Shown: positions 5,663 through 45,964, counted from the first letter of the stretch. The stretch: DNA of 64,000 bases from an uncultured Verrucomicrobiae bacterium (GCA_963756875.1 CAVWPA010000003.1:224001-288000); one strand, 5' to 3'. The notes: generated by a model from the sequence alone, not told the origin. Made by a program: numbers and translations.

Positions 5663-5692
5663 ACCCGATGACGCGCGATCGATTTTTGAGAC

Positions 5693-5752
5693 TGGAGGGC
5701 GCGGCGGTGTCAGCGCCTATGAATTTGGGACACGACGGCGCGTGTCCCTCCA
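5693..5752. repeat. REP-like double hairpin with TGGAGGG...CCCTCCA termini
   Basis: Terminal inverted repeat plus internal GGCGC/GCGCC and GGGACACG/CGTGTCCC stems. Confidence 0.65.
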
Positions 5753-5759
5753 TTAGCTC

Positions 5760-23780: not shown

Positions 23781-23792
23781 CCACGCCGGCCA

Positions 23793-23930
23793 AAAGCTCC
23801 AAATCCCAACATCTCCGCCACAGGACGGATTCGTCCGACTGGCGAACAGGCTCCAAAAATCGCTACGCCTCCTATTGGATTTTGAAGCTTGGGATTTCTC
23901 TGGATGTTGGTGCCTGGAGCTTGGAACTTT
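23793..23930. repeat. Heptamer inverted tandem repeat element, copy B, containing a nested mini-element
   Basis: AAAGCTCCAAATCCCAACATC...TTGGTGCCTGGAGCTTGGAACTTT. Confidence 0.85.
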
Positions 23931-28475: not shown

Positions 28476-30270
28476 GCTCGCGTTTGCGCTTCAACTCGAT
28501 CTCGATTTTTGTGAGCGGAAGACAATTCACCACGTCGGCTTTCGTAAGCCAGCCTTTGCGCGCAATGCCGATGCCAAACCAAAGGTCCTGCAGACGCTCG
28601 GTTCGGTGCGCGTCCGGGTTGATCACGCATTTGACTCCTTTCTTCTTCGCCAGCGGCCACCAGCGCCAGTCGAGATCGAGGCGCTTGGGCGCGGCGTTCA
28701 GCTCAATCCACGTTCCATTCGCCGCCGCCGCGTCCAGGACGGCAGGAATATCGACAACATAAGGCTCGCGCTGCAGAAGAAGTCGCCCCGTCGGGTGCGC
28801 GAGAATGGTAACGAAACGATTGCTAATCGCGCGGATCACGCGGCGCGTCATTTCCGCTTCGCTCAAATTAAAAACCGAATGGATCGAGGCGACAACGAAA
28901 TCCAGTTCGGATAAGAGATCATCCGAAAAGTCGAGGGTGCCGTCGCGGAGGATATCGCATTCCACACCGGCAAAAAGCCGGAAGCCGTCGAATTTTTTGT
29001 TCAATTTTCGAATCGCCGCAATTTGTGCGCGGAGTTTCTTTTCATCGAGCCCGTGCGCCTGAACGGAGCTGCGGCTGTGCTCCGCGATCCCCAGATATTC
29101 CAGGCCGAGCGCCTGCGCTGCATCGGCCATTTCCTCCAGCGTATTATGGCCGTCGCTCGCGACCGTATGACAATGAAATGTGCCGCGTAAATTTTCCTTT
29201 TCGATCAAGTGCGGCAACACATGTTTTTCCGAAGCCTCGAATTCGCCGCAATTTTCACGCAGCTCCGGCGGGATAAAATCGAGATCGAGCGCGTGATAAA
29301 GGCCGGCTTCATCGTTAATTTTCTCGTTCTTCTGCGGCGATCGTTTAACCGTCTGTCCAGTCGAAGACTCGCCGTGGCGAGCTCGGACCTTTTTTGCTTT
29401 GGGATCCGGCGGCAACGGCCCGAGCCGATACTCGTTCAACGTCCAGCCGCGTTTAAGCGCCCGGTTACGCATCTCGATATTATGCTCCCTGTTGCCTGTA
29501 AAATAATTCAACGCGAAAGGATATTCGCTCGAGCTTACCACTCGCAGGTCGCATTGGATCCCGGAACGCAGCCGCACACTCGATTTCGTCGGTCCGTGTG
29601 CAACGATCGACTCAACCAGCGGGTGCTCGACGAAAAATTTCGTGATTACGTCCGGCTTTTTTGTCGCCACCACAAAATCGATATCGTGCACGATCTCCCG
29701 GCGTCGCCGGTAACTCCCTGCGACATCGACATGCAAGGCGTCACGATGCGCCGTCAGATCCGCGCGCAGCGACTCCGCTTCGGCTGCGATCCGGCCGAAT
29801 TGAAAATAGCCGGCATGCTTTGTCCGCTGCTCAATGGCGGCGCAAATTTTTGCCTGTGTCGTTTCGCCAAAGCCAGGCAACTGCGCGACTCGCCCGGACT
29901 CACACGCTTTTCGCAGCTGTTCAATTGAGCTGATCTGCAGGTTCTCGTACAGCGCCTTGATCTTTTTCGCGCCAAGACCCGAGATCGAGAATAACTCCAG
30001 AATCGCCGCCGGGAAGTTGGCCCGGAGTTCTTCCAGATATTTCAATGATCCCGTGGCGGCCAGCTCTTTGATTTTCTCCGCGATGCTTTTGCCGATTCCC
30101 GGAATTTTCGCCAGCGCCTGTTCGTCCTGCAGATCGGGCAGGTTACCGCCCCAGGTTTCGAGGGAGCGCGCGGCATTGGCATAAGCCCGGATCTTGAATG
30201 GATTCTCCTCCTTCAATTCGAGAAGAGTGGCGATCTCTTCCAGGACTTCGACGATCTGGGTCTTTGTCAT
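28468..30270 (-). CDS. polX: DNA polymerase X / PHP 3'-5' exonuclease
   Basis: ENPFKIRAY, HhH motifs, GSYRR, catalytic DID and CDLR, YFTG, PHP motifs HCH..SDG, HPTGR, DAH. Confidence 0.95.
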   Translation of the reverse strand: MTKTQIVEVLEEIATLLELKEENPFKIRAYANAARSLETWGGNLPDLQDEQALAKIPGIGKSIAEKIKELAATGSLKYLEELRANFPAAILELFSISGLGAKKIKALYENLQISSIEQLRKACESGRVAQLPGFGETTQAKICAAIEQRTKHAGYFQFGRIAAEAESLRADLTAHRDALHVDVAGSYRRRREIVHDIDFVVATKKPDVITKFFVEHPLVESIVAHGPTKSSVRLRSGIQCDLRVVSSSEYPFALNYFTGNREHNIEMRNRALKRGWTLNEYRLGPLPPDPKAKKVRARHGESSTGQTVKRSPQKNEKINDEAGLYHALDLDFIPPELRENCGEFEASEKHVLPHLIEKENLRGTFHCHTVASDGHNTLEEMADAAQALGLEYLGIAEHSRSSVQAHGLDEKKLRAQIAAIRKLNKKFDGFRLFAGVECDILRDGTLDFSDDLLSELDFVVASIHSVFNLSEAEMTRRVIRAISNRFVTILAHPTGRLLLQREPYVVDIPAVLDAAAANGTWIELNAAPKRLDLDWRWWPLAKKKGVKCVINPDAHRTERLQDLWFGIGIARKGWLTKADVVNCLPLTKIEIELKRKRERK

Positions 30271-45028: not shown

Positions 45029-45862
45029 GTGCGACGGTATCACGATTTGCTCCGCCTCGTCCTGGAACAAGGCCAGCCGCGCGCCGATCGCACCGGTACC
45101 GGCACACTATCGATCTTCGGCGCGCAGGCCCGCTTCGATTTACGGCCCGATGGCCCCGGATTTCCGCTGCTGACGACCAAGAAGTTGCACACGAAGTCGA
45201 TCATCTACGAGTTGCTTTGGTTTTTGCGGGGCGACACGAACATTCGTTACCTTAACGAGCACGGCGTCACCATTTGGGACGAATGGGCCGATGAAAACGG
45301 CGACCTCGGCCGCGTGTACGGGGCGCAATGGCGCGACTGGCACGGCCAAAACGGCGTGCGTGTCGATCAGATCGACAATGTCATCGCGCAAATCAAAAAT
45401 AATCCGTCGAGCCGGCGTTTGATCGTGAGCGCCTGGAACCCGGCGGAGATCGATAAGATGGCGCTGCCGCCCTGTCACGTGCTGTTTCAGTTTTATGTTT
45501 CCGCCGCGGCGGATTCGTCCGATGGCGAACAGAGAGGCGAGTTAAGCTGCCAGCTTTACCAGCGGAGCGCCGACTTGTTTCTCGGTGTGCCGTTCAATGT
45601 CGCGTCGTATGCACTTCTCACGATGATGGTCGCCCAGGTGTGCGATCTGCGCGCCGGCGATTTCGTTCACACTTTTGGCGACCTGCACCTCTATCAGAAC
45701 CATCTCGAACAGGCGCGCGAACAGCTCAGCCGCGATTGCCGTCCTTTGCCGCGCATGAAATTAAATCCGGCGATCAAGAACATCCGCGATTTTAAGTTCG
45801 AAGACTTTGAGTTGGTCGGGTACGATCCGCACCCGTCGATCAAGGCGCCGATCGCGGTGTAA
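45029..45862 (+). CDS. thyA: Thymidylate synthase, with a 10-aa insertion
   Basis: DRTGTGT, ELLWFL.GDTN, PPCH, YQRSAD..LGVPFN, IKAPIAV. Confidence 0.97.
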
Positions 45863-45876
45863 CGCCGCAAGGCGGC

Positions 45877-45964
45877 GAAACCTCCAAATCCCAAGCTCCA
45901 AACCCCAGAGAAATTCCAATCATCAATATCCAAACCCGATTTGGAGCTTGGGGCTTGGCGATTT
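45877..45964. repeat. Heptamer inverted tandem repeat element, copy D, right arm shortened
   Basis: CCTCCAAATCCCAAGCTCCAAACCCCAGAGAAATTCCAA...TTTGGAGCTTGGGGCTTGG. Confidence 0.8.

Follow-up and report, generated by a model that had tools for sequence, protein, structure and literature searches.

How does a thymidylate synthase come to carry ten residues that related enzymes lack? The question is raised by thyA in a 64,000-nt stretch of DNA from an uncultured Verrucomicrobiae bacterium (CAVWPA010000003.1:224001-288000), hereafter the window, whose first letter is position 1 of all coordinates given without a contig name. An original prediction, made from the sequence, had pointed to a 30-bp double-hairpin mini-element inserted in frame in this gene. 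Our analysis indicates that the 30 nt are probably a copy of a dispersed repeat family and of insertion origin, an assessment that concerns their descent and does not extend to the enzyme responsible. The repeat itself is likely to be a family of minimal repeats, 30 or 33 nt long, resembling repetitive extragenic palindromes (REPs). The gene and its insert are as follows.

45029..45862, + strand: thyA (thymidylate synthase), 277 aa, host of the insert, from an open reading frame (ORF) call with Pfam and PDB matches
45500..45529, no strand assigned: 30-nt double-hairpin repeat copy in thyA, residues 158-167 (10 aa)

A 30-nt insertion in thymidylate synthase

Pfam family PF00303 (Thymidylat_synt) covers the full length of the thyA product (E 5.8e-123), and the best match to a solved (PDB) thymidylate synthase reaches E 5.7e-122. 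The alignment with the solved enzymes has its gap at the position of the insert, in agreement with the earlier claim that removing the segment restores canonical spacing. The inserted letters, TCCGCCGCGGCGGATTCGTCCGATGGCGAA, sit between the codons for FQFYV and QRGELSC (45500-45529), where the gene reads TTT TAT GTT [TCC GCC GCG GCG GAT TCG TCC GAT GGC GAA] CAG AGA GGC GAG TTA AGC, with the insert bracketed. Sought in 40 related genomes, thyA was readable in 29, and the ten residues are absent from ThyA in all 29, a result that is independent of the two unpublished genomes among them (G002 and G007). The DNA of these relatives is TAY GTN/CAG RAY GGC GAR, the slash marking the empty site, so the extra piece is exactly 30 nt and neither flank is duplicated; the in-frame insertion and the lack of a target-site duplication are both confirmed.

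An AlphaFold2 model of ThyA, built on a 23-row alignment with a mean pLDDT (predicted local distance difference test) of 82.7, places the insert within a 12-residue loop between strands 151-158 and 171-182. Mean pLDDT is 60 for residues 161-170. This predicted placement suggests that the insert is translated as a loop. The same beta-turn bears an unrelated 3-residue insertion in the thyA of a relative, G017 (locus L003, SGGSRSE; protein P0088 has SGGCRSE), and hence tolerates insertions and deletions in general.

Evidence for a dispersed repeat family

The insert has a look-alike elsewhere in the window, to which the original prediction had drawn attention.

23814..23846, + strand: intergenic 33-nt copy, TCCGCC ACA GGACGGA / TTCGTCC GACT GGCGAA, recognised from its sequence and by the two models described below (HMM and R1)

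This copy lies about 35 nt past a stop codon, where GCTCCAAATCCCAA-type repeats form a larger inverted repeat with the copy at its apex. A 13-mer that it shares with the insert has 2 exact occurrences in the window, against 0.34 expected (at up to one mismatch). When a 46-nt query around the insert was run with blastn-short on the 2.69-Mb genome to which the window belongs (G000), it met a single other place, 23826-23849, with a 24-nt match containing one gap (E 0.018), and the remaining output was at noise level. The look-alike is real, yet on these comparisons the pair taken alone is marginal evidence, and significance comes from the wider family. Both copies are indeed followed by CAG, as had been remarked, but CAG is not a feature of the family, and in thyA it is the native Gln codon.

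On the pair alone, the resemblance could be fortuitous, and the ten residues could have arisen by slippage or duplication within a beta-turn of ThyA that accepts insertions and deletions. The weak pairwise match (E 0.018), the unrelated 3-residue insertion in the same loop of G017, the likeness of the insert's end (GAT GGC GAA) to the native GAY GGC GAR, and the fact that the thyA copy alone folds no better than shuffles (z -0.96) all fit such an origin. The family itself was found by seed scans and profile searches starting from the intergenic copy, and models that had not seen the thyA insert tell against coincidence. With a hidden Markov model (HMM) of 14 members, from which both window copies were left out, the intergenic copy ranks 15 genome-wide (E 1.2e-4) and the thyA insert ranks 16 (E 0.0081 on the minus strand, 0.38 on the plus strand). 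A covariance model, R1, built from 15 members without the thyA insert, places the insert at 45494-45533(-) with 32.6 bits and a genome-wide E of 4.6e-5, E-values being rough by the tool's own statement. It is the top site outside the R1 training set in 2.69 Mb and outscores one training member; the intergenic copy scores 44.2 bits. Orientation relative to the family is ambiguous, with 22.4 bits on the plus strand against the 32.6 on the minus strand.

The inserted segment, moreover, is the family core end to end (6+3+7+6+2+6 = 30 nt, minus strand), and the rare stem variants of the thyA copy, TTCGCC/GGACGAA and TCCGCC/GGCGGA, are found again, compensated in the opposite arm, in further members. 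Two metagenomic ThyA proteins (P0072 and P0106) have SASRTDSSGGE, the 11-residue translation of the canonical 33-nt form, at that codon boundary. Chance resemblance is already contradicted by the HMM and R1 rankings and the compensated stem variants, and we consider it very improbable.

The GCTCCAAATCCCAA-type repeats form larger inverted repeats at 23790-23930 and at 45878-45964, just downstream of thyA, and a 13-mer of theirs occurs in the genome 7 times exactly and 48 times with one mismatch.

Anatomy and fold of the repeat

The consensus of the 30-nt form is (G)TCCGCC-ANN-GG(A)CGGA followed directly by CTCGCC-GT-GGCGAG, while in the 33-nt form the second half is CTCG(T)CC-NGT-GGCGAG. The general module is TCCGCC-N3/4-GG(A)CGGA then YTCG(T)CC-N2/3-GGCGAR, two abutting 6-7-bp hairpins with zero spacer. 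In the 33-nt form hairpin 2 (YTCG-T-CC...GGCGAR) mirrors hairpin 1 (TCCGCC...GG-A-CGGA), so that the two make an inverted pair without a spacer, whereas hairpin 2 of the 30-nt form is a perfect palindrome. No frame of the family consensus contains a stop codon. Unit lengths among the matches listed (120 exact pattern matches) are 30 nt in 65 cases, 33 in 35, 32 in 16 and 31 in 4, with no unit of 34-36 nt although the pattern permits those lengths; several of the 32-nt matches listed stem from other phyla.

Covariation among the aligned copies backs the two-mini-hairpin fold. Over the 15 members, 98.8% of cells are paired in this structure and 7 are double-change cells, a result not reached in any of 500 shuffles. 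A wider alignment of 73 unique sites draws on G000, 30 loci in relatives and 5 other-phylum genomes (rows L053, L077 and L068 coming from the unpublished G014 and G007). In it three pairs covary, with CG 46/TA 26/GC 1, TA 67/CG 6, and CG 68/TA 4 plus one mismatch, and the bulged A of hairpin 1 is almost invariant. The two abutting mini-hairpins of the original prediction therefore hold at the level of covariation but not as the minimum-energy fold of a single copy, which is one long bulged hairpin; single-strand fold energies are -9.8 kcal/mol for the intergenic copy (z -3.6) and -8.2 for the thyA copy (z -0.96). We rejected the single long hairpin, energetically favoured as it is, since it shows no covariation (1 double-change cell, a count matched in 334 of 500 shuffles). 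Since the four arms resemble one another, either fold can form, and a choice between a hairpin and a two-hairpin 'clover' is discussed in the corresponding part of an article on REP doublets forming hairpins (REPINs; Bertels and Rainey 2011, PMC3116915). A strand asymmetry in mismatches (G.T without A.C) that seemed clear in 15 copies shrank to 9 versus 3 in the 73 sites, and we make no claim from it.

In-frame copies in other genes and nested copies

In the mtnA-like gene of G000 the product reads ...KGKSE-LATGRVRPTGG-PDWH..., whereas the closest orthologue, in G015 (86% identity), has KGKSE-PDWH, and the 11-aa core is absent from 8 of 8 orthologues. The LigD-like gene of G000 has AREM-FATGRIRPTGG-EEQK, with an 11-aa insert that 15 of 16 orthologues lack; the exception, G010, whose genus is nearest by ThyA identity, reads LATGRVRPTGG there. 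Compared with the G000 copies, gatA of G015 carries an 11-residue insert (SASRTDSSRGE) and a succinyl-CoA-synthetase/citrate-lyase-like gene of G004 a 10-residue one. These four genes agree with the earlier proposal of a small repeat that can land in core genes as a tolerated loop. A ThiD case in the unpublished G014 was unclean, with a 6-residue difference, and was not used.

The element occurs in both orientations relative to its host genes. At five insertion sites there is zero flank duplication, and the flanks differ (GTT/CAG, GAG/CCG, ATG/GAA, AAG/ATC and GAG/CCT). As judged by comparison with the empty alleles, new copies arose at hairpin-foot boundaries without target duplication, in a lineage-specific manner and in frame. 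Because the unit is a multiple of three and the consensus has no stops, intragenic copies can survive as 10-11-residue surface loops.

Some copies are nested in other repeats. In mtnA (G000:C3:1338949-1339000; locus L086 in G015) the 33-nt core lies between GTCCGAG and CCGGACTGGCAC, where G015 has just GTCCGAGCCGGACTGGCAC, in frame. That 19-mer is a dispersed mini-hairpin repeat (GTCCGAGCCGGACTGGCAY, stem GTCCG/CGGAC), the host of the nested core in G000, and has 35 genome matches at up to three mismatches, for example at C1:228810 and C3:1167563. The composite, a core in the loop of a GTCCGAGCCGGACTGGCAY-type hairpin, recurs at two other G000 loci and in G010 and G008. Such recurrence means either repeated entry of the core at one loop position or joint movement of the whole composite, and in both cases copying is implied. 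In several intergenic and composite copies the core stands at the apex of larger hairpins. Hairpin-loop targeting as a general rule was nevertheless dropped, since the empty thyA and ligD sites share no common hairpin when folded.

The GTCCGAGCCGGACTGGCAY repeat is often chained with other small palindromes (TTCCGGCG..CGCCGGAA and GCACGCG..CGCGTGC).

Distribution of the family

The original prediction rested on the existence of further genome-wide copies, and these were found: at E <= 1e-3, R1 detects 16 full sites and 2 half sites in G000. Copies lie mostly between genes, with 3 of the full sites verified as intragenic. A half-copy lies in the window.

29357..29387, + strand: half-copy with hairpin 2 only (GACTCGCCGTGGCGAGCTCGGAC), inside a longer hairpin and then TTTTTT (R1 28.8 bits, E 4.1e-4)

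Its region, 29340-29395, resembles an intrinsic terminator and has near-identical copies at G000:C3:783237 and C1:103874.

Under stricter filters, R1 was applied to the 40 relatives. Matches occur in 17 of the 24 other genera of the same family, at 1-70 per genome, the copy-rich relatives being G017 (70), G012 (41), G010 (32) and G008 (29); the 16 genomes from other families of the order gave 0 matches, though an incomplete genome is no proof of absence. Scanning one genome per species for the exact pattern returned at least 119 loci. Among the matches listed, most are labelled Chthoniobacterales, Candidatus Udaeobacter or Verrucomicrobiota, and a few bear the labels Planctomycetota, Falkowbacteria, Saccharibacteria, Omnitrophota, Nitrospirae, Dormibacterota or Chitinophagaceae. 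These other-phylum occurrences are not stray matches, as judged by R1, because in five such genomes the model finds 5-20 matches each (10, 18, 6, 5 and 20 at E <= 0.01). The core is nearly identical in Verrucomicrobiota, Planctomycetota, Falkowbacteria and Saccharibacteria, and the other-phylum copies are G+C-rich islands in A+T-rich flanks, where lineage-specific longer flanks often close an outer stem. By these matches the family extends beyond the Verrucomicrobia clade, including Planctomycetota and bacteria of the candidate phyla radiation (CPR). Rfam contains no family for the repeat: at E up to 1, the 16 loci compared with it had 4 matches, all unrelated and below threshold.

Related sequences were also seen in G000. 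A degenerate R1-like copy occupies C2:23086-23123, just beyond the end of a 1538-aa metH-like ORF (C2:23186-27799). Units of the form CAGTTTACTCGCCGTGGCGAG(C)CC.. with the same second hairpin occur at C3:1328587, 1334311, 1335147 and 1341104, all four within 13 kb of C3, and at C2:168077. A run of CCCCTTACC units at G000:C2:4500-4560 adjoins one R1 copy, and the 16-mer CCCCTTACCCCTTACC has 7 exact occurrences in the genome.

History and constraint of the thyA copy

An alignment of ThyA had been proposed as a check for patchy presence of the ten residues. Among the 29 relatives no such pattern exists, the insert being absent throughout, but it is present elsewhere, in six other species and 58 metagenomic protein clusters. 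Of the best 120 ThyA clusters from a collection of 5.8 billion proteins, 58 have the same 14-residue loop (in proteins 84-92% identical) and four have longer derivatives of it. Within a sample of 300 species of the family, thyA measures at least 831 nt in G088, G146, G176 and G134, which belong to one genus, and in G051 and G305; many congeners of these species carry the short form. A metagenome scan for insert-bearing thyA DNA yielded L301 as its single locus. On this phyletic pattern the thyA insertion is thus old, an allele that a clade of soil Verrucomicrobia has in common, and did not land recently.

Both stems are kept in the DNA of the six species and of contig L301, and the copies differ in the two hairpin loops (GC/CC/AC in one, GAT/AAT/GGT/AAC in the other). 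In G051 the second hairpin is partly degraded, and in G176 (L364) and G134 (L365) an added 12 nt in the first loop (TCCGCCAAGGCT-like, partly a repeat of TCCGCC) give SASAKATADSSNG... The proteins mirror this arrangement: in the 58, the variable residues are positions 3 and 8, with 1.44 and 1.72 bits where the other eight have 0.13-0.47, and these positions are the codons of the two hairpin loops. Codons of unchanged amino acids are identical in 45 of 48 cases in the insert, as against 804 of 1367 (59%) elsewhere, over six comparisons that are not independent of one another. Conservation is accordingly not confined to the protein, an outcome that would have spoken against the original prediction, but extends to the DNA. 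Read from these alignments, the stems of the thyA copy are kept at the nucleotide level, with changes in the loops or compensatory.

The residues after the insert are mostly Q-R/K-G-E (R in 49 and K in 6 of the 58), whereas empty alleles have mostly QDGE; frequent precise excision is disfavoured because insert-bearing and empty alleles differ in this way. Judged by protein sequence, P0106, which combines the 33-nt form with a QDGE background, may record a second insertion at this site. Our ThyA tree is unfinished and poorly resolved, with 5 of 66 inner branches starred; the starred branches force at least two changes and give no firm count of gains and losses.

Where G176 and G134 have the additional 12 nt, the metagenomic ThyA P0005 has 7 extra residues instead, and at G070:C1:1030700-1031530 an 831-nt thyA match, of insert-form length, contains two in-frame TGA codons.

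Search for a mobilising enzyme and rival origins

How the unit is copied is a separate matter from its descent. We envisage that it would be copied in trans by a protein recognising the folded single strand, and that conservation across genera and phyla would follow from such recognition or from a role of the hairpins in the host. As a first guess, and a tentative one, the copying protein might be an enzyme of the HUH or REP-associated tyrosine transposase (RAYT) type, encoded away from the repeat. PF01797 has 6 matches in G000, of which 5 are real small RAYT-like genes with HUH and Tyr motifs.

C3:11963-12409: RAYT-like gene (PF01797)
C2:136837-137304: RAYT-like gene (PF01797)
C3:1631560-1632216: RAYT-like gene (PF01797)
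C1:672209-672676: RAYT-like gene (PF01797)
C3:1385540-1386013: RAYT-like gene (PF01797)

Four of the five have copies of a repeat of their own on either side (46-54 nt for two of them, tandem units of about 240 nt for one). Those flanking repeats occur elsewhere in the genome too, in the classical REPtron layout, and are other than the double hairpin; a copy of one lies near 5690-5753 of the window. The sixth match is weak (29.4 bits, C2:26294-26587), lies inside the metH-like ORF C2:23186-27799 and is probably spurious.

A number of observations weigh against a mobile origin, and in particular against a RAYT as the mover. The RAYT-like genes of G000 have no R1 copy closer than 1.5 kb. The 96 kb around 30 RAYT loci of five copy-rich relatives contain 3 R1 sites, about the background density, and the relatives' site that does lie beside a strong RAYT gene is weak, 200 nt away and outside that gene's own, different flanking palindromes. 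No R1 copy was found at 4 PF01797 loci of CPR genomes, and PF01797 is unmatched in 3 of the 5 repeat-bearing genomes of other phyla (CPR/Planctomycetia; completeness not given). TnpB (PF07282) was not found in G000, an 87.6%-complete genome. The five insertion sites share no flanking motif, and the empty thyA and ligD sites, when folded, no hairpin; the single-copy minimum-energy fold is, as described, one hairpin and not two. Neither a within-species presence/absence polymorphism nor an excision read was seen, which leaves ongoing mobility unsupported. Among sequencing runs, two soil-metagenome contig sets contain a fraction of 0.07-0.11 of the sequence words and no RNA set does; contigs would miss rare excision. 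Finally, the synonymous conservation of the thyA copy, although drawn from kin comparisons that are not independent, is unlike what a purely selfish, decaying insert would display and suggests function or homogenisation. With nothing convincing in G000, the five relatives or the CPR genomes, we rejected RAYT linkage, and the earlier proposal of HUH-type insertion gains no support from five RAYT-like genes of which none is flanked by the repeat in G000, nor from the CPR genomes.

These results leave room for a mobile mini-element that is copied by a recombinase or nuclease outside the HUH/RAYT group, or by hairpin-driven template switching during replication or repair. Such an origin accords with the missing RAYT linkage, with the 3 of 5 other-phylum carriers that have no PF01797 match and with the lack, at the five sites, of a conserved target tetranucleotide of the IS200/IS605 kind; CGTC-type REPs, too, are described in the relevant part of one survey as having no dedicated transposase (PMC3733652). 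Template switching alone, however, leaves the conserved sequence, the bulged base and the exact boundaries across phyla unexplained, and no candidate gene for another enzyme was found, no systematic phyletic-profile search having been made. We regard this origin as a possibility, though a doubtful one.

The constraint on the stems raises a different explanation, in which the repeat is a host-functional nucleic-acid module, a binding or processing site for a conserved host factor that is kept by selection and spreads rarely. It could act as RNA (in stability, processing or ribosome pausing) or as DNA (through gyrase- or IHF-like binding, as proposed for REPs). A core nearly alike in Verrucomicrobiota, Planctomycetota, Falkowbacteria and Saccharibacteria inside AT-rich flanks would be expected of such a module, as would the conserved synonymous sites of the thyA copy (45/48 vs 59%), the compensatory changes that keep the stems and the lack of a linked transposase. 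Copy number, however, ranges from 0 to 70 among genera of one family, and copies sit in unrelated genes, in both orientations, and nested in other repeats. There is no Rfam match, no common neighbouring gene was seen, and a role inside a surface loop of ThyA is hard to picture; the exact boundaries of new copies are left unexplained as well. We consider a mainly host-functional module unlikely.

Returning to the reading that we prefer, a minimal REP-like repeat of insertion origin, we advance its widest version with reserve. In that version, which is conceivable but far from established, a self-contained double-hairpin module of 30-33 nt, near a multiple of three, is found across Verrucomicrobiota, Planctomycetota and CPR bacteria, is copied by machinery other than a flanking RAYT and leaves no target duplication, enters even essential genes and the loops of other mini-hairpins, and then comes under nucleotide-level selection. 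Were this true, no smaller complete mobile unit would be known from bacteria, and its partner protein would be widely distributed.

Relation to known repeats

Several properties recall elements described before. In the sections of Di Nocera et al. (2013; PMC3733652) that treat these repeats, REPs are 20-40 bp long and tagged GTAG or CGTC, tight REP dimers with 1-2-bp spacers are reported from Opitutus terrae, and REPs wholly within ORFs are most numerous in O. terrae and Rickettsia conorii. For O. terrae, Additional file 3 has about 70 rows, and single intra-ORF REPs encode 7-8 residues; the same source describes CGTC repeats without a linked or flanking transposase and explicitly expects further untagged REP families (PMC3733652). 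As far as those sections go, the double-hairpin repeat resembles REPs and REPINs in that both are 20-40-nt imperfect palindromes, dispersed, mostly extragenic, often tightly abutted dimers and conserved within lineages, with some copies wholly inside ORFs and translated, and, as for CGTC repeats, with no flanking transposase. It differs in lacking GTAG/CTAC at either end of the consensus (in the 15-site and the 73-site set alike), CGTC occurring only inside the bulged stem of the reverse strand and GTAG after the core in a single Saccharibacteria lineage. It does not flank any RAYT gene, and its unit, 30-33 nt altogether, joins two unlike hairpins directly, with a bulged A that is conserved; the same core is found in distant phyla.

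The parallel that had been drawn with Rickettsia palindromic elements (RPEs) stands. Both are palindromic, lie in frame in conserved protein genes, yield a tolerated surface peptide and have no autonomous coding. RPE-1 measures about 100-150 bp; the double-hairpin repeat, at 30-33 nt, is shorter and has another sequence, host phylum and lifestyle. No sequence relation to RPEs was found in Rfam or in the paper supplements searched. Cyanobacterial dispersed repeats, which Elhai et al. reportedly described in 2008 as about 20-30 nt long, hairpin-forming, apparently mobile, nesting and occasionally inside genes, would be alike in size, hairpins and nesting, with unrelated sequences and phylum.

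Mini-elements of the IS200/IS605 insertion sequences, palindrome-associated transposable elements (PATEs), are moved by Y1 HUH transposases and have hairpin ends, an extrahelical base, no target duplication and boundaries at the hairpin foot. The double-hairpin repeat shares with them a bulged base, the absence of duplication and exact hairpin-foot boundaries. In contrast to PATEs, it has no fixed 4-5-nt target next to the left end at the five sites and no TnpB, and its hairpins abut directly; an autonomous insertion sequence with the same ends was not found in a search that covered PF01797 and PF07282 genes near copies. Classical miniature inverted-repeat transposable elements have terminal inverted repeats and duplicate their target, whereas comparison with the empty thyA, mtnA and ligD sites reveals no duplicated base.

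The original prediction had presented the insert as a candidate for an undescribed system, and in this respect it went too far. Repeats of the REP-like kind are known, including, in the sections cited (PMC3733652), tiny REPs of 7-8 codons inside ORFs, chiefly those of the verrucomicrobium O. terrae; it is the present family that appears new. The repeat's peptides and sequence gave 0 matches in the supplements of that article, and a literature search found no paper combining 'Udaeobacter' and 'palindromic'. What is distinctive is the two-hairpin unit of 30/33 nt with its bulged A and no spacer, a core shared across phyla, the lack of a RAYT beside it and the nucleotide-level conservation of a copy fixed in an essential gene.

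Biological significance

The thyA insert and its kin show how small a repeat can spread and be tolerated in essential enzymes (thymidylate synthase, GatA, MtnA and LigD). One insert followed through several species amounts to a natural experiment, in which selection on the hairpins is separable from selection on the peptide. A cross-phylum core without a linked transposase makes it testable what moves, or uses, untagged REP-like repeats. In soil Verrucomicrobia, inserts of 10-11 residues can moreover mislead alignment, annotation and the length statistics of protein families.

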